Shown here: positions 4,849 to 9,964 of the stretch, piece by piece
How positions within the stretch are numbered: position 1 is the first letter of the stretch
Layout of the letters: each line of letters starts with the position of its first letter
Sequence record: DRR723986_1328
Direction: 5' to 3' (one strand)
DNA length: 20,969 nt
Notes under the pieces: model-generated
The model's input: only the letters and a program-made list of their open reading frames with translations
Told to the model about the DNA's origin: nothing
The model's database searches: none
Made by a program: the position numbers and the translations under genes

Positions 4849-5346
4849 TTATTCGTTGTCATTTGCCCCGGTGCGAACCGGTGGCCAGGTTTCCGTGTCG
4901 TGATCGGGGTGCTGGAACGAAACGAGCGACGCCAGAAAAGGCGCTGCCTCCATATCGTCTTCCGTCACCCTTTCGGGAATTTGAGCCATGCTGTCGGCAT
5001 AAGGCAGCTTTGCCTCGACGCCGAACTGGATGCTGGGCGGGATCTGCGATGGATGGTCAAAGGCCCCGATGGCCAGTGCAATGCCATCCGGCGCTTCATA
5101 GGTCAGCGGCGTACCGCATTCGGCGCAAAAGCCCCGGGTTGCGTGATTGGAACTCTGGAAGTGCTTCAACGATCCACGTGTCCAGACAAGCCTGGATGTT
5201 TCAGGAACACTGACCAGTGGCGCGTAAAAGCCACCAAAGGCCTTCTGGCACATGCGGCAATGACAAATGGAAGCCTCGCCCAATGGCCCTTCCACCTTGA
5301 ACCGCAAGGCACCGCACTGACAGCCTCCGGTATGGATCTCCGTCAT
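4849..5346 (-). CDS. GFA family (glutathione-dependent formaldehyde-activating / CENP-V-like) zinc protein
   Basis: GGCQCGALRF, CHCRMCQKA and RGFCAECGTPL. The ATG at 5346 overlaps the upstream stop codon (ATGA). Confidence 0.9.
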   Translation of the reverse strand: MTEIHTGGCQCGALRFKVEGPLGEASICHCRMCQKAFGGFYAPLVSVPETSRLVWTRGSLKHFQSSNHATRGFCAECGTPLTYEAPDGIALAIGAFDHPSQIPPSIQFGVEAKLPYADSMAQIPERVTEDDMEAAPFLASLVSFQHPDHDTETWPPVRTGANDNE

Positions 5347-5837
5347 CCGCCCCTCACTTCCCAATGATCCGTGTCATGATCGGGATGCTGATTGTTGGTT
5401 GCCGTGACATCATTGATCCCACCTGGCAGGTCGTCCCGATTTGACTGCGTTTCGTTCAGTTCGAAAAGATGCCCATAGAATGACACTCGCCCCTCGACAC
5501 CGGACTGTTCAACCGGCGTGACCGCGGCGACATCGTCCAGGCTGCCATGGGTAAAGGAAATGTGGTCGTCGCCAATCGTATCAAAGGCCAGAGGCGTGCC
5601 GCAGGTTCCACAGAAACCCCGGCGGACAGGCTTGGAAGAGTGGAACCAGGAGGGTTCGCCGCGGGTCCATTCAAAATCGGACTTCGCAGCACCGATCAAC
5701 GGCAGAAAGAAATTCCCCGATGCCTTCTGGCACATGCGGCAATGACACAGATGCGGATGACCGACCTCTCCCGTCACCTGGTAACGCACGGCGCCGCACT
5801 GGCAACCGCCGCTCAGCCTTTGAACAGTATCGCCCAT
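5343..5837 (-). CDS. GFA family zinc protein (tandem paralog)
   Basis: GGCQCGAVRY, CHCRMCQKA and RGFCGTCGTPL. The ATG at 5837 overlaps the DUF559 stop (TGATG), with a GGAGA SD upstream. Confidence 0.9.
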   Translation of the reverse strand: MGDTVQRLSGGCQCGAVRYQVTGEVGHPHLCHCRMCQKASGNFFLPLIGAAKSDFEWTRGEPSWFHSSKPVRRGFCGTCGTPLAFDTIGDDHISFTHGSLDDVAAVTPVEQSGVEGRVSFYGHLFELNETQSNRDDLPGGINDVTATNNQHPDHDTDHWEVRGG

Positions 5838-6205
5838 CAGAAATTCTCCTTGCCACAAGCGTTCAGGATCTTGCGGCAGACACCGTCAAGGTCGTGCGTC
5901 ACCTCCGCATTCCAGAAGCGCAAGGTCGTCCAGCCGAGAGCCTGAAGCTTGCGGTCGCGTGCGATGTCACGCGCCTGGCCCTGCAGTTCTGCGTGCTGGG
6001 ATCCGTCCAGTTCCACGATCAAGCGATGAGCAGGTGCCGCGAAATCGACAATGACCCCTTCGATCGGCATCTGCCTGCGAAAGGAAATCCCCTCCAATCG
6101 ATGCGCCCGGATCACTTGCCAGAGCTTCTTTTCAGCGTCCGTCATTTGCGAACGCAGGCGTTTGGCGTTGGATCTGAGTTGCTTGGAAACTGTCCGGTGC
6201 GGCAT
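5837..6205 (-). CDS. DUF559 (Vsr-like, PD-(D/E)xK) endonuclease domain protein, 122 aa
   Basis: LRSQMTDAEKKLW, FRRQMPI...IVDF, IVELDGSQH and RD..RD..L...GW..LRFWN. ATG at 6205 is preceded by an AAGAGGT SD. The frame is also open upstream to GTG 6505. Confidence 0.88.
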   Translation of the reverse strand: MPHRTVSKQLRSNAKRLRSQMTDAEKKLWQVIRAHRLEGISFRRQMPIEGVIVDFAAPAHRLIVELDGSQHAELQGQARDIARDRKLQALGWTTLRFWNAEVTHDLDGVCRKILNACGKENF

Positions 6206-6256
6206 GTAGCGACCTCTTAGCGATAGCCTGAAACCAGTGTTTGTTACACAAGCTGT

Positions 6257-6306
6257 ATACCCCCCTCTGTCCGCTTGCGCGGACATCTCCCCCTCAAGGG
6301 GGGAGA
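6257..6306. repeat. REP-like double-hairpin palindromic element, left copy
   Basis: ATACCCCCCTCTGTCC start; hairpin TGTCCGC-ttgc-GCGGACA (6268-6285); hairpin TCTCCCCCT-caa-GGGGGGAGA (6286-6306). Confidence 0.85.
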
Positions 6307-6428
6307 CCGGAGCATGCGGGCTGATTTGAGAAAACTCATACAGCTTTGGAGAGGTCTCCTCCCTGAGCAGAACTCCGGTCTTGCGCCATAGCCGGTTCAA
6401 AAATGCATGGCAGCGCGGCATACGCCCC

Positions 6429-6477
6429 TCTCCCCCCTTGCAGGGGAGATCTTCCCATAGGGGACAGAGGGGGGTAT
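6429..6477. repeat. REP-like double-hairpin palindromic element, right copy (inverted relative to the left copy)
   Basis: The reverse complement reads ATACCCCCCTCTGTCC-cctatgggaag-ATCTCCCCtgCAAGGGGGGAGA. It has a 16-nt exact match to the left copy and a near-identical second hairpin. Confidence 0.85.
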
Positions 6478-6501
6478 CCCGTCTTTCCGCCTGGTACCGT
6501 C

Positions 6502-7917
6502 TCACCGCTTGACTTCCCAGGTTGTCACGCGGGCACCGGTTTCTGAGTCTTTTGAATCCTTTAGAAGAATTCCCTGAGACGTCAGTTCATCGCGGATCGC
6601 GTCAGCTTCGGCCCAGTTCTTGGCATTGAGGGCCTCCAGGCGTTTTTCGATGGCTGCCAAAATGCCGGCCTCATCAACGCCAGACAAATCCGCCTTGACC
6701 GGATGAACGCCGAGGATCGCGGCAGATGCCGAGTAAACATCCAGTTTGGCAGGGTCCTTGGAAGCCTCGACGGCGAGCGCGTGGAGCGCCTGAATGGCGC
6801 CTGCGGTGTTCAGGTCGTCCAAAAGGGCATCAAGCACCTCGGCGGCAGGGGCCGCATCCGTTTCGACCGGATCCGGCCAACGGGCCAGGAGGTTTTCCGC
6901 TTCTTCAAGCTTGCGTTTGGAGAAGTCGATCGGCTCTCGATAGTTGGTCATCAACATGGCAAGGCGCAGCACTTCGCCCGGCCACATGCGGCCGCCGAAA
7001 CTGTCCGTTTCCAGAAGCTCCTGAATGGTGAAGAAGTTGCCCTCGGACTTGGACATCTTCCGGCCTTCCACCTGCAGGAAGCCGTTGTGCATCCAGTAGT
7101 TGGCCATGACCTTGGTGCCATGAGCGCAGCGGGACTGGGCGATTTCGTTTTCGTGGTGCGGGAAGATAAGGTCCAGCCCGCCGCCGTGAATGTCGAACAC
7201 TTCACCCAGATGGTGCGCGCTCATGACAGAGCACTCGATGTGCCAGCCCGGACGCCCCCTGCCCCACGGGCTGTCCCAGCCGGGCTCTTCTTCAGAAGAC
7301 AGTTTCCAGAGCACGAAATCTCCGGGGTTCTTCTTGTGAGCATCAACCGCAATGCGAGCCCCGGCTAGCTGCTCGTCCAGCTTCCTCTTTGACAGGCCGC
7401 CGTAGTCGGGCATGGACTGGGTGTCGAATAGAACTTCACCGCCCGCCTGATAGGCGTGTCCCTTTTCGATCAGCGCCGCGATCATCTCGACCATGCCGCT
7501 GATATGCTGTGTCGCCCGAGGCTCGATGCTCGGCTCCAGCACACCCAGAGACCTGATGTCCTTATGGAACTGGTCCGCAGTCTTCTGCGTCACCTGGGCA
7601 ATGGCTTCATTGAGCGACAGATCGGGAAAGTCACGAAGTGCGCGTGCGTTGATCTTGTCGTCAACGTCAGTGATGTTGCGCGCATAGGTGACGTGGTCGG
7701 CACCATAAAGATGGCGCAGAAGCCGGAAGAGCACATCGAAGACGATGACCGGTCGCGCGTTACCGATGTGGGCAAAGTCATAGACGGTCGGTCCGCAGAC
7801 GTAGAGACGCACATTCCCGTCATCGATCGCCCGGAAGTCCTCCTTCTGGCGCGTCAATGTGTTGGTGAGCTTCAAGCCCTTGAAAGTGCCGGATTTCTCT
7901 GTCTCAGCGGCGCTCAT
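6502..7917 (-). CDS. cysS: Cysteine--tRNA ligase
   Basis: [17 protein letters not shown] (HIGH motif), [38 protein letters not shown] and KMSKS. SD AGGAG at 7928-7932. Confidence 0.98.
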
Positions 7918-8054
7918 GTCAAACGGTCTCCTGGCCGGCTGGCCGGGCGGTCCGTCTCAGAGGAAATTTTGCCAAGAGGGAACGGCCACAGCCAGCGGTG
8001 TCGCTAGCTGCAAATAATGGTGATCGAAATGATGTTCCGTGTGGCCGTCATCAT
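7918..8054 (-). promoter_or_regulatory. Candidate ribosome-mediated (translational) attenuator 5' leader of the cysS...cimA operon
   Basis: Contains the leader ORF and three alternative helices: 8048-8040 with 7990-7982 (9 bp); 7995-7983 with 7945-7931 (13 bp, 2-nt bulge); 7978-7971 with 7935-7928 (8 bp, covers the SD). No U-tract terminator. Confidence 0.72.
8004..8054 (-). CDS. Leader peptide MMTATRNIISITIICS (16 aa; 5 Ile, 3 Thr, 1 Cys)
   Basis: Read directly from the minus strand: ATG ATG ACG GCC ACA CGG AAC ATC ATT TCG ATC ACC ATT ATT TGC AGC TAG. It ends 86 nt before the cysS ATG. Five of codons 8-14 are Ile. Confidence 0.75.
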   Translation of the reverse strand: MMTATRNIISITIICS

Positions 8055-8061
8055 GGAGCGC

Positions 8062-8092
8062 TTTATGGACCGGAAAACAGAACCCGGTCAAG
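8062..8092 (-). promoter_or_regulatory. Sigma70-type promoter predicted to start transcription at the leader-peptide ATG (leaderless)
   Basis: Minus strand: CTTGACC (8092-8086), N18, CATAAA (8067-8062), 7 nt, ATG (8054). No SD precedes the ATG. Confidence 0.6.
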
Positions 8093-8293
8093 GCTGCAGT
8101 TGCCGCTGAAACGCCAATTTCCGTGCCTTGTGGCCGCAACGCGTCACTCCCACGAGCGATAACGGATCGCGCGCTTTTCCTGTTGCGGCAACAAACGGGA
8201 TCGGCTTTGCAATGGCAAGGAAGCTTAACGCAGTTCAATTATGCGCAAGATGCACTAGACTTTCCCCGTTGGGAATCAGAGGGGGTATTTCCG

Positions 8294-9964
8294 ATGGGAA
8301 TATTTTGCACGTGCCGTAACAGACATCTTGGTCTTCTTTTCACGCTGGCAGCGTTTTTGTCCGGACCACTTTCGGCACCATATGTCCAGGCACAAACCGC
8401 GGCACCGGCGACCAGCGAGACCCAGGTCGTTCCGCCCCCTGTTTTCAAGGAACCGCAGACGCCGATCGCCAGGGCCATTCAGGCGCAAGTTTCTACGAAA
8501 CTGCCCGAAGGTCTTGCACTCTATTATGGCGAACGCGCTTTCGCACCGGTCTGGTTCAACGAGAATGGCCTGACGGAAGATGCTCATCTGACCATTGCCG
8601 CCATGGCGGCGGCGAACGACCACGCACTCAACCCCAACAATTACGATCCCCTCGGCTTCATAAAGCGTTCGGAAACTTCCCAGAGCGAGCAGGAATGGGC
8701 CCAGTTCGATCTGGACCTGTCCGTACAGTTCCTGCGCTATGCGACCCACCTCTCCTCCGGCCGCGTTCAACCCAACAAGGTCAACAAGGCGCTGAACGTG
8801 TTTCCGGATCGGCCTGATCCGAAAATGCTTTTTGAAAATGCCGAACAGGCCGTGGACTTCGGGGCCTTTCTGGAAAGCCTCGCACCCCAGACCGACAATT
8901 ACGCGCGCCTGAAGCGGCGCCTTGCCCAATACCGGGAGAAGGCTGCTGCCGGCGGCTTTACTCAGGTTCCGGATGGTGAGGTTCTGAAACCGGGTATGAG
9001 CGATCCGCGCCTGGAGGTTTTGCGAACCCGGCTCATGGAAGAAGACATTGTCGTTGCCGGAGATCACACCGGTGATGTCTATGACGGCGCCCTGGTGGAA
9101 GCCGTCAAGCTGTTCCAAGAGTACCACGGCCTTGAAACCGACGGTGTCATCGGCAAGGCGACAATTGCCCAGCTCAACATTCCGATCCAGGAAAAGCTCA
9201 TCCAGATGGAGCTCAACATGGAGCGGCGGCGCTGGATGCCGGATGATCCGGGACAGTTCTACGTCTTCGTCAATCTGGCAGACCAGAACCTGAAGGTGGT
9301 GCGTGACGGAAAGACCATTCACACGGCGCGGGTCGTTGTAGGCAAGCCCTACCACGCAACGCCAGTGTTTTCCGACCGGCTGGAATATGTGGAAATCAAC
9401 CCGTACTGGAACGTGCCCTATTCCATCGCGACGAAGGAGTATCTGCCGAAACTCAAGCAGAACCCCACGGCGCTCAGCAACAAGAGCATCCGGATCTTCC
9501 AGGAAGGCAACGAGGTCGCGCCGACACAGGTTGCCTGGAACAGCTATTCCGGTGGCAATTTCCCGTTCCGGCTGCGCCAGGACCCGGGTGAGGACAATGC
9601 GCTTGGTCGCATCAAATTCATGTTCCCCAACCAGTTCAACATCTACATTCACGACACCCCGTCGAAATCCCTGTTCACCAGAGCGGAGCGCGCCTTCAGC
9701 CACGGCTGCATTCGCGTATCGGATCCCTTTGCCCTGGCGGACGTTCTTCTGGTCGATTCCGACGGCACTCCGGGAAAATGGGAAGCCATTCGCGACAGCG
9801 GCGAGCGTACGGTCGTCAAAACCAAGGTCGAAATCGACGTGCACCTCACCTACCTGACCGCGTGGATGAACAAGGACGGATCAACACATTTCAGAAAAGA
9901 CATCTACGACCGCGACAAGGTGCTGCTGGAAGCGCTACGCAGAGCGATGACAGAGAACCTCTAG
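8294..9964 (+). CDS. L,D-transpeptidase (YcbB/LdtD-like: scaffold, peptidoglycan-binding and YkuD domains)
   Basis: Signal peptide ending VQA-Q; PG-binding motif AVKLFQ.YHGL..DG.IG..T; VVVGK...TP, NPYWNVP.SI, NALGRIKFMFPN and catalytic IYIHDTP...SHGCIRV. GAGGGGG SD precedes ATG 8294. Confidence 0.93.
   Translation: MGIFCTCRNRHLGLLFTLAAFLSGPLSAPYVQAQTAAPATSETQVVPPPVFKEPQTPIARAIQAQVSTKLPEGLALYYGERAFAPVWFNENGLTEDAHLTIAAMAAANDHALNPNNYDPLGFIKRSETSQSEQEWAQFDLDLSVQFLRYATHLSSGRVQPNKVNKALNVFPDRPDPKMLFENAEQAVDFGAFLESLAPQTDNYARLKRRLAQYREKAAAGGFTQVPDGEVLKPGMSDPRLEVLRTRLMEEDIVVAGDHTGDVYDGALVEAVKLFQEYHGLETDGVIGKATIAQLNIPIQEKLIQMELNMERRRWMPDDPGQFYVFVNLADQNLKVVRDGKTIHTARVVVGKPYHATPVFSDRLEYVEINPYWNVPYSIATKEYLPKLKQNPTALSNKSIRIFQEGNEVAPTQVAWNSYSGGNFPFRLRQDPGEDNALGRIKFMFPNQFNIYIHDTPSKSLFTRAERAFSHGCIRVSDPFALADVLLVDSDGTPGKWEAIRDSGERTVVKTKVEIDVHLTYLTAWMNKDGSTHFRKDIYDRDKVLLEALRRAMTENL

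Follow-up and report, generated by a model that had tools for sequence, protein, structure and literature searches.

A single-cysteine upstream reading frame before cysS in the Stappiaceae: a probable translational attenuator without a terminator

The leader of cysS, the gene for cysteinyl-tRNA synthetase, in the Stappiaceae probably controls translation by ribosome-mediated attenuation in response to the supply of Cys-tRNA(Cys), without a transcription terminator. We studied this leader in a window of 20,969 nucleotides (sequence record DRR723986_1328), in which all of the features described below lie on the minus strand, and in related leaders from other genomes. Every part of the leader is conserved, three of its helices (helix 1, P2 and P4) covary, and an alternative helix is supported by both its complementarity and its energetics, while masking of ribosome positions in silico lends the switch modest support. 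We propose that the cysS mRNA probably starts at, or 0-3 nt from, the AUG of a 16-codon upstream open reading frame (uORF). While the uORF is free of ribosomes, the segment GCUGGCUGUGGCCGUU would be locked by P2, which contains the Cys, Ser and stop codons, and by helix 1, which contains codons 3-5, and the downstream hairpin P4 with a weak outer stem would hold the start and flanks of the cysS Shine-Dalgarno (SD) sequence; this would be the OFF state. A ribosome at the end of the uORF, present for longest when it awaits Cys-tRNA at the UGC codon, would cover the 5' strand of P2, while a steric clash or a second ribosome would keep helix 1 from forming. Thus freed, the invariant segment would pair with GGACCGCCCGGCCAGC, the 5' half of P4, and the SD-bearing 3' half of P4 would be released, leading to more cysS translation in this ON state.

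The cysS gene occupies positions 6502..7917 and encodes a protein of 471 residues (Pfam tRNA-synt_1e, E = 3e-113, plus CysS_C). Its SD sequence, AGGAGA, lies at 7927..7932, 9 nt upstream of the AUG at 7917-7915, with the AGGAG core at 7932-7928. Sequence, conservation and spacing point to a -35-like box, CTTGAC, at 8087..8092, and a -10-like region, TCCATAA, follows 17-18 nt downstream at 8063..8069; the T of TTGAC lies 35-37 nt upstream of the uORF AUG in 88 of the 96 distinct leaders. A simple sigma-70 promoter scan found no site at the leader, so the promoter is proposed from conservation and spacing alone, and the position of the -10-like region would place the transcription start 0-3 nt upstream of the uORF AUG. 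All 23 of the RNA-seq runs listed consist of contigs, and are thus uninformative on starts and levels. Contigs from two studies end at 8022 and 8039, with neither study covering 8040-8144, which is a weak hint as to the start. The contigs connect the leader with cysS in all four runs examined, and in two of the four they span the entire intergenic region.

The uORF (8004..8054) encodes MMTATRNIISITIICS in 16 codons followed by UAG, and its Cys codon, UGC at 8012-8010, is codon 15, the next-to-last sense codon. Comparison of the 96 distinct leaders gives a length of 16 codons in 87 (15, 17, 18, 19 or 20 in the remainder), a UAG stop codon in every one, and the C-terminal residues IICS in 83. 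At least one Cys codon is present in the uORF of 95 leaders; a single Cys at codon 15 is seen in 80, and a second Cys codon, never in tandem with the first, in 15. In leader L073, AGC replaces UGC and the uORF is without any Cys codon. An SD-like motif upstream of the uORF start is found in just three of the 96 leaders, and with this rarity and the TTGAC spacing the uORF looks leaderless. The retention of frame and length, together with a promoter spacing that fits a 5'-terminal AUG, is indirect evidence that the uORF may be translated; stalling at the Cys codon and an effect on cysS translation are further steps that we infer.

The 156-nt leader folds with a z-score of -2.57, and only one of 200 shuffled sequences folds equally well. 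The 5' strand of helix 1, ACGGCCACA (8040..8048), comprises uORF codons 3-5 and pairs with 7990-7982 through nine canonical or G-U pairs, as the initial annotation of this DNA had described. The core of this helix is 95.5% paired among 91 leaders and covaries across families, for example as GGCUCC:GGAGCC in L214 and UGACG:CGUCA in L211. Cognate duplexes have a mean energy of -14.36 kcal/mol, against -12.41 kcal/mol for non-cognate ones, and none of 5000 permutations gave a value as low. Helix 1 is real. The hairpin P2 (7989..8010), composed of CAGCUAGCG, an ACAC loop and CGCUGGCUG, is seen in both the minimum-energy fold and the RNAalifold consensus. Its 5' strand, 8010-8002, pairs with 7997-7989 and runs from the last base of the Cys codon through the Ser and stop codons; this nine-pair strand begins at the C of UGC, and a further G-U pair, present in both the minimum-energy fold and RNAalifold, extends it to the G of that codon. 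P2 is 98.2% paired, with seven of its nine pairs invariant and a closing pair that changes from G-C to A-U in three leaders. Across families the changes read from the alignment are A-U, G-U and U-A, plus one of G-C to A-U. The loop is variable (ACAC, AAAU, CAAU, UCAG, ACAA and others).

The 3' strands of P2 and helix 1, in this order, make up the switch segment (C)GCUGGCUGUGGCCGUU (7981..7997), the columns of which are invariant in 91 leaders. The exact 16-mer of this segment occurs once per genome in each of the three genomes searched, where matches with one or two mismatches did not exceed those of a control pattern. The OFF structure is 90.7% paired, seven of its pairs are changed on both sides, and its covariation score is matched by none of 500 shuffles. 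Two compensations between families, U-G to G-C (L219) and G-C to C-G (L254), were read by eye; the column counts of the cross-family alignment (A2) are blurred by one-base shifts in L215, L219 and L254.

The hairpin P4 (7930..7947; CC.GGCC - AGCC - GGCC.GG) is found in the minimum-energy fold and its 3' strand continues into the SD sequence, of which just the GG is paired in P4 in this fold. P4 is 93.6% paired and three of its six pairs are altered on both sides, for example from G-C to U-A in L085 and L090; the loop is AGCC or a variant of it, and where L109 and L125 carry a loop insertion of about 20 nt the stem is retained, as judged by eye. The proposed ON-state partner of the invariant segment, GGACCGCCCGGCCAGC (7938..7953), is the 5' half of P4/P5 and could form 8+3+4 pairs with it. 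The alternative helix of the invariant GCUGGCUGUGGCCGUUC with GGACCGCCCGGCCAGC is the minimum-energy fold once the 5' part of the leader is masked, at -35.7 kcal/mol compared with -29.8 kcal/mol when P4 is kept, and it is partly chosen by RNAalifold. It is 96.6% paired over 15 pairs, while slid versions reach at most 54.6%. Within the Stappiaceae leaders the alternative helix has no double changes, one of its strands being invariant. The same switch from P4 to the alternative helix is seen in Breoghania, genus g29 (L071), Pannonibacter and the 'Rhodobiaceae' leader, despite their differing P4 sequences; of the two Pseudovibrio leaders shown, L085 switches and P4 persists in L083. Duplexes with a shuffled partner were equally strong in 2-42% of trials, a result that is not significant, owing to the G+C-rich partner; several partner segments were clipped in this test and we do not count it as support.

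The leader is present in 129 of 132 Stappiaceae genomes and in 10 of 10 genera of this family, which the current NCBI taxonomy places in the order Hyphomicrobiales of the Alphaproteobacteria. CysS protein identity falls to about 76% within the genus, and the leader is conserved far beyond cysS. In a species-level genome collection the core pattern was found in 101 stretches; among the 80 of these that were listed, 78 are titled as Stappiaceae genera or loosely named MAGs, the two exceptions being 'Candidatus Phaeomarinobacter sp.' and 'Rhodobiaceae bacterium'. Comparable leaders occur in 14 of the 20 other families of the order, where uORFs with Cys codons always precede cysS. The Cys codons of these sister families lie 5-10 codons upstream of the uORF stop, and a ribosome stalled there would not reach P2. 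An Rfam scan of 7600-8500 (E up to 10) gave chance hits only, and in the literature searched, to which most subscription journals did not belong, we found no description of this leader in the Stappiaceae or Hyphomicrobiales. It is possible, though on balance doubtful, that the Stappiaceae leader is one form of a family of uORF switches that extends across the order Hyphomicrobiales and has hitherto gone undescribed, its members being leaderless, Cys/Ile-rich and placed before cysS, and acting on translation and not on termination. In such a family helix 1 would, on completion of the leader, close over the start region near the 5' end. The Cys codon would then be read by the first ribosome alone, working co-transcriptionally, and this reading would fix the state of each mRNA; the device would be a one-shot sensor that relies on one sense codon, two positions ahead of the stop.

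Estimation of the access to the SD sequence gives insight into what a ribosome on the uORF could do. When a stalled and a queued ribosome are both masked, the mean cost of opening the ribosome-binding site falls from 13.84 kcal/mol (free) to 9.26 kcal/mol, with a drop of 3 kcal/mol or more in 70 of the 97 leaders, and it is back to 12.79 kcal/mol once the mask enters the invariant segment. When the footprint of the stalled ribosome alone is masked, helix 1 still forms, the SD accessibility of the window goes from 0.59 to 0.60, and accessibility rises by more than 0.2 in just 8 of the 97 leaders; the initial annotation had named unchanged access under such a mask as evidence against its own switch, and in this respect the result tells partly against it. 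Masking of the entire 5' part raises SD accessibility by more than 0.2 in only 27 of the 97 leaders and lowers it in eight.

For the window itself, opening the ribosome-binding site costs 7.6 kcal/mol with a ribosome at the stop codon, against 10.7 kcal/mol with one at the Cys codon, so the geometry is not Cys-specific in silico; a stop-plus-queue mask saves 3 kcal/mol or more in 58 of the 97 leaders. Both results are what would be expected if the uORF and hairpins worked without sensing cysteine, either because any translation of the uORF opened the structure, as a constitutive coupling that sets the level of cysS, or because the structure mainly set mRNA stability; the conservation of a single Cys codon, and the one natural leader that has none, are in keeping with this as well. 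We nevertheless think it unlikely, as Cys codons are found in 95 of the 96 leaders and in the uORFs of the 14 sister families, always before cysS, and such recurrence is hard to explain without a link to Cys-tRNA.

Translational attenuation at the cysS SD was already proposed in the initial annotation, with a different wiring. In that scheme helix 1 and an anti-SD helix 3 together form the OFF state, and a ribosome stalled at the Ile/Cys codons covers the 5' strand of helix 1 and allows a 13-bp helix 2 to form as the ON state. The broader claim, of a leader-peptide device that lacks a terminator and acts beside the cysS SD, is supported by our analysis, and it is plausible that the invariant segment can pair alternatively with the SD-proximal hairpin. 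All three helices also exist: helix 2 (7995-7983 with 7945-7931) has 13 canonical or G-U pairs with a 2-nt bulge and is 95.0% paired, and helix 3 (7978-7971 with 7935-7928) has eight canonical or G-U pairs, its 5' strand lying in the pyrimidine-rich stretch CCCUCUUGGC (7971..7980), the claimed anti-SD, which is complementary to 7935-7928. By eye, helix 3 is kept as CUCUUGGC:GCCGGGAG despite the insertion of about 20 nt in L109 and L125. A stalled ribosome would, moreover, reach the 5' strand of helix 1 in the 15 leaders with a second Cys codon and in those sister families whose Cys codons are at uORF positions 10-13.

This three-helix set leaves out P2 and P4, which are the hairpins chosen by the minimum-energy fold and RNAalifold, and its OFF state of helix 1 plus helix 3 lies 6.7 kcal/mol above that fold. 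In the window, a 30-nt footprint with the Cys codon in the A site extends over approximately 8030-8001, and so masks the 5' strand of P2 but does not reach that of helix 1 (8048-8040). Once the 5' part is masked, the register originally given for helix 2 yields -30.1 kcal/mol, compared with -35.7 kcal/mol for the other register, a loss of 5.6 kcal/mol. Covariation, which the initial annotation had named as a check of its helices, is seen in helix 1; helix 2 has no pair changed on both sides, as its 5' strand never varies, and helix 3, paired in 80.8% of cells, has a covariation score that 266 of 500 shuffles reach. The compensatory U-A changes that preserve P4 in L085 and L090 break helix 2, and the G and C that helix 2 would bulge are more than 90% conserved while an adjacent paired C varies. 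Nor is there support for the sensing of Ile: no connection between cysS and this amino acid is visible here, and the codon conserved as sensor is that for Cys. Taken together, these points make the original wiring quite unlikely to be right.

The absence of an intrinsic terminator raises the question of whether the output could be mainly transcriptional, through Rho. P4 is followed by GGAGACCGUUUGACAUG, with no U-run, and a scan of 7700-8500 found no terminator-like site on the minus strand, in agreement with the lack of a U-tract noted at the outset; the sole site is on the other strand, at 8342-8354. With the SD closed, the untranslated, C-rich and G-poor leader (7981-7959) would let Rho terminate inside cysS. 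A pyrimidine-rich, G-poor stretch does lie downstream of the invariant segment, and Rho could add to the translational mechanism. As the main output we consider it very unlikely; RNA contigs connect the leader with cysS in four of four runs, though contigs cannot reveal levels.

Least credible is the proposal that a protein, perhaps CysRS itself, or a small RNA recognises the invariant 16-17 nt as its operator and that the uORF is incidental. The action of E. coli ThrRS on thrS is an example of an operator bound by a synthetase, and the invariance of the segment does exceed what base pairing needs, with seven of nine P2 pairs never varying. However, there is no conserved loop with a GCA anticodon (the P2 loop varies, and P4 has AGCC or a variant), Rfam gives no match, and the motif is single-copy; the need of the segment to fit three partners explains the invariance. 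Mimicry of tRNA-Cys was rejected on the loops alone, there being no conserved GCA loop, and a T-box on the lack of both an Rfam T-box match and a conserved loop carrying GCA.

If the attenuator reading is true, it shows how a large group of marine and soil Alphaproteobacteria matches cysteinyl-tRNA synthetase to the charging of tRNA-Cys, using the logic of the trp attenuator with the ribosome-binding site as its target and a leaderless mini-gene as its start. The leader would be a compact natural test case for the minimum number of regulatory codons in such a sensor, here one, and annotators gain a conserved, unannotated small ORF and a cis-element absent from Rfam. Nothing is overturned by this, as both the control of cysS by Cys uORFs and leaderless Cys sORFs that unmask a ribosome-binding site have been published.

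The closest published relative of the Stappiaceae leader is the uORFC-8-2 motif of Rhodobacterales, which likewise precedes cysS and of which 145 examples have been published (Brewer et al. 2021, RNA Biol 18:2417, PMC8632094); we compared it by its published description. As described there, the motif has a tandem pair of highly conserved Cys codons, most often at positions 14 and 15, and a 3' U run 'in all cases' that is read as an intrinsic terminator, and the proposed mechanism is that the ribosome stalls at low Cys-tRNA (PMC8632094). By this account, both leaders lie upstream of cysS in Alphaproteobacteria and have a short uORF with a conserved AUG, a Cys near position 14-15, and two stems of which the first contains the Cys codon or codons. 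The Stappiaceae leader departs from this description in three respects: in 80 of 96 leaders there is a single Cys codon, the U-run is missing, and the second stem continues into the SD. Since certain records bearing the leader are titled Rhodobacteraceae or Rhodobacterales, a few among the 145 examples may be of the Stappiaceae type; the supplement text of PMC8632094 makes no mention of the motif name, cysS, Labrenzia or Stappia.

Leaderless reading frames of this kind have precedents elsewhere. In the mycobacterial 'Cys ribulon', as outlined by its authors, leaderless polycysteine sORFs unmask a ribosome-binding site (Canestrari et al., bioRxiv 10.1101/834739). The Stappiaceae uORF resembles these in being, as the TTGAC spacing and missing SD suggest, leaderless; it has one Cys codon and precedes cysS, whereas the sORFs described there have polycysteine tracts and control operons of cysteine metabolism in Actinobacteria. 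The mycobacterial sORFs were tested by mutation while the Stappiaceae leader is known from sequence, and the two have no sequence relation in so far as the former are described. In Deinococcus deserti, the cysS mRNA, its start mapped by dRNA-seq, begins with the reading frame of a leaderless leader peptide of 10 residues, two of them Cys (de Groot et al. 2014, PMC4007540). There, as predicted here, the cysS mRNA opens with the AUG of a tiny Cys-containing ORF, but in the account given transcription attenuation is proposed, the phylum is another and there are two Cys codons. The trp-type leader peptide of Sinorhizobium meliloti, trpL, is reported to be leaderless (PMC4007540, PMC10117765), which implies that leaderless leader peptides exist in this order. 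The trp-type attenuators, as generally described, share with the Stappiaceae leader a 1:2 / 2:3 / 3:4 logic and regulatory codons in or beside region 1. The actinobacterial LEU element before leuA is a further leader-peptide device and is said to mask the SD rather than terminate transcription. In the trp-type systems the 3:4 hairpin is an intrinsic terminator, whereas its Stappiaceae counterpart is the SD-proximal hairpin, and in the Stappiaceae an additional helix, helix 1, joins the switch segment to the 5' end of the uORF.

The cysS gene of the window (471 aa; Pfam tRNA-synt_1e, E = 3e-113) starts at 7917 on the minus strand, and about 140 nt upstream, on the same strand, lies a 16-codon uORF (8054-8004) encoding MMTATRNIISITIICS*, with no Shine-Dalgarno (SD) motif before it. 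A CTTGAC box (8092-8087, minus strand) and a -10-like TCCATAA (8069-8063, minus strand) stand just upstream of the uORF, and an L,D-transpeptidase gene on the plus strand is divergent from the leader. Rfam holds no family for the leader region of the window. A 93-codon ORF in another frame (7957-8238, minus strand) runs across promoter, uORF and switch, and is almost certainly not a gene, because the conserved promoter lies inside it. At the other end of cysS, overlapping its stop by 4 nt, is an ORF (5840-6505, minus strand) whose residues 109-217 form a DUF559/restriction-endonuclease-like domain (E = 9.5e-38); no family matches its initial ~100 residues, and its true start may therefore be further in. 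A GFA-family gene (5346-5858) comes after it.

With the CysS protein as query, 30 loci were found in the genus; of 132 family genomes, 129 carry a match to the leader DNA, with all ten genera represented. A 28-position pattern matched 101 stretches in a species-level genome collection; the 80 listed carry the titles Roseibium/Labrenzia, Stappia, Pseudovibrio, Pannonibacter, Breoghania, Hongsoonwoonella and Polycladidibacter, with a few loosely named MAGs, and the genera among these 80 are those of the Stappiaceae, order Hyphomicrobiales. From 202 gathered records, 194 with the core motif and 190 with a complete leader, we obtained 97 distinct leaders; the uORF was counted in 96, leaving out one split by an insertion (L069). 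The uORF has 16 codons in 87 of the 96, a UAG stop in every one, and a peptide ending in IICS in 83; it contains one Cys codon in 80 leaders, two in 15 and none in one. The cysS leader is a real, strongly conserved cis-regulatory element.

TTGAC stands 35-37 nt upstream of the uORF AUG in 88 of 96 leaders, a spacing by which transcription would begin at the AUG or 0-3 nt from it, and the uORF is therefore probably leaderless; an SD-like motif precedes it in only 3 of 96. In two studies RNA contigs break off at 8022 and 8039, with the next contigs starting at 8145 and 8214, which is only a weak hint on the 5' end because contigs cannot show transcript ends; in two further RNA runs, contigs cover the whole cysS upstream region.

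Two leaders stand apart. The one lacking a Cys codon (L073, G075:C38:199500-200400) has AGC in place of UGC, so that its peptide ends in IISS, and GGCUG where the other leaders have GGCCG in the invariant segment (7997-7981 in the window); its source contig is A+T-rich and belongs to a 20-Mb assembly in which contamination is 6%. L069 (G072:C10:57850-58750), from a Stappiaceae genome 74% complete, carries within the leader an element of ~165 nt with terminal inverted repeats, whose insertion point coincides with the CTAG at the uORF stop; this CTAG is duplicated, with a copy on each side. The element looks like a MITE-type insertion and, by moving the uORF and the invariant segment apart, provides a naturally occurring disruption of hairpin P2.

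Shuffling weakens the fold of the leader (z = -2.57; 1 of 200 shuffles as good). The initial annotation had proposed a switch of three helices with no U-tract: helix 1 (8048-8040/7990-7982), helix 2 (7995-7983/7945-7931) and helix 3 (7978-7971/7935-7928). All three are present, every pair canonical or G-U, and the U-tract is indeed absent; however, the minimum-energy fold combines helix 1, cut to seven pairs, and a weak outer stem (ACGG:CCGU) with two hairpins outside that proposal. P2 (CAGCUAGCG-ACAC-CGCUGGCUG, 8010-7989) is stacked on helix 1 and takes in the last part of the Cys codon together with the Ser and stop codons, and the 3' strand of P4 (7947-7930) continues into the AGGAG of the cysS SD (7932-7928). 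In an alignment of 91 of the 97 leaders (L069, L173, L066, L070, L068 and L067 were excluded for long insertions), the helix 1 core, P2, P4 and the outer stem together have 90.7% of cells paired and seven pairs changed on both sides, a covariation score reached by none of 500 shuffles. P4 alone is 93.6% paired, with both-side changes in three of six pairs; P2 is 98.2% paired, with seven of nine pairs invariant; the outer stem is 61.7% paired, with weak covariation.

RNAalifold on this alignment returned both P2 and the core of P4, plus a portion of a long-range helix, GG..GUUC (7987-7980) with GGAC..CC (7953-7946). Together with GCUGGCUG:CGGCCAGC this makes a 15-pair alternative helix that joins the invariant segment to GGACCGCCCGGCCAGC; it is 96.6% paired, against at most 54.6% in slid versions, and the invariance of one strand accounts for its lack of double changes. 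Variation in the other, 3' strand is mostly C/U facing G and G/A facing U, which fits base pairing but also ordinary transition bias. A conserved GAGACGG upstream of P4 (7952-7958) resembles the SD region GGAGACC(G) (7927-7933), and either could be the partner of a pyrimidine-rich stretch (7980-7971); Stappia leaders have an extra local hairpin (CUCC...GGAG) inserted between the two.

Energies distinguish these arrangements. In the unmasked window leader the minimum-energy fold reaches -54.8 kcal/mol, against -48.1 kcal/mol for helix 1 with helix 3, the OFF state first put forward; helix 3 is 80.8% paired in the alignment with covariation not above shuffles, and we consider that state unlikely. 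With the mask covering the 5' part up to 12 nt beyond the first base of UGC, the alternative helix gives -35.7 kcal/mol, helix 2 -30.1, retained P4 -29.8 and helix 3 -25.8. Helix 2, 95.0% paired in the alignment with no double change, loses here to the alternative helix. The wiring of the initial annotation calls for revision, although its helices exist.

When nothing but the 30-nt footprint is masked, a check suggested by the initial annotation, helix 1 persists, and just 8 of the 97 leaders gain more than 0.2 in SD accessibility. With everything 5' masked, as for a stalled and a queued ribosome, SD accessibility rises by that much in 27 and falls in 8. Averaged over the 97 leaders, the energy needed to open the ribosome-binding site is 13.84 kcal/mol unmasked, 10.96 with the Cys footprint only, 9.26 with Cys and queued ribosome, 10.59 with stop and queued ribosome, and 12.79 with the mask 3 nt further into the invariant segment; under the Cys and queue mask it is lower by at least 3 kcal/mol in 70 of 97. 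In the window leader the stop-position mask opens the site more than the Cys-position mask (cost 7.6 vs 10.7 kcal/mol). Masking thus lends the switch modest support, real in direction and small in effect, on the modelling assumption that the ribosome prevents helix 1.

We propose that the cysS leader is a leader-peptide attenuator with translational output, in which P2 and helix 1 would keep the invariant segment sequestered. A ribosome waiting at the uORF end, longest if Cys-tRNA is scarce, would free this segment, which could then capture the 5' half of P4 and release the SD-bearing half.

We screened the cysS upstream regions of 20 further families within the order, and of 40 families outside it, for a uORF that is 10-27 codons long, contains Cys and starts 30-40 nt after TTGA[CT]. 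Such a uORF occurs in 14 of 20 against 2 of 40 (control strands, 2 of 60); 10 of the 20 also have GCUGG within 24 nt past the stop. The sister-family peptides are likewise Ile/Cys-rich (...AICICGISIIS*, ...NICCGIIIS*, ...IICR*). Helix 1 pairing is kept despite sequence change, as GGCUCC:GGAGCC (L214), UGACG:CGUCA (L211) and GAAGACG:CGUCUUC (L217), and cognate duplexes average -14.36 kcal/mol against -12.41 for non-cognate ones (0 of 5000 permutations as low). By eye in the cross-family alignment, one P2 position varies among A-U, G-U and U-A, and a second goes from G-C to A-U; the alternative helix changes from U-G to G-C (L219), G-C to C-G (L254) and U-G to C-G (L215, L218), and breaks at U.U in L204 and L085 and at A.G in L213. 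In those families whose Cys codons lie 5-10 codons ahead of the stop, the stall is perhaps read through helix 1, as the initial annotation proposed.

In almost every family the Cys codons have Ile codons (AUU/AUC) as neighbours (IIC, ICIC, ICCGIII, IIIS*; window uORF, L203-L219, L226, L254); the bases of these Ile codons are used by no helix of our models, and cysS here has no evident link to isoleucine. In many other alphaproteobacterial orders (L222-L261) cysS lies, by eye, directly behind what looks like the end of gltX, the spacer being short. Promoterless small ORFs with Cys codons occur in several such spacers, for example VTFVRFICRISICG* and MQRIAIIIGACIICA*, and L226 (MIGLICICRIVCC*) has tandem Cys codons within a hairpin and then a U-rich tract, as in a published Rhodobacterales motif.

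Our literature search found no description of this leader for Stappiaceae or Hyphomicrobiales. Several comparable systems have been described. Sinorhizobium meliloti trpL, from the same order, is a leaderless leader peptide (PMC10117765), and the Deinococcus deserti cysS mRNA begins with a 10-codon ORF containing two Cys codons (PMC4007540). Mycobacterial leaderless polycysteine sORFs unmask a ribosome-binding site (Canestrari et al., 10.1101/834739), the mechanism we propose here, without sequence relation. In Rhodobacterales, cysS is preceded by the uORFC-8-2 motif, in which tandem Cys codons at 14-15 lie in the first stem and a terminator with a U-run is present (Brewer et al. 2021, PMC8632094); gene, uORF and first stem are common to both, whereas the tandem Cys codons and the terminator are absent from the window leader. 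The cysS leader thus resembles this published Cys-uORF motif but differs from it in Cys codon number and proposed output element.
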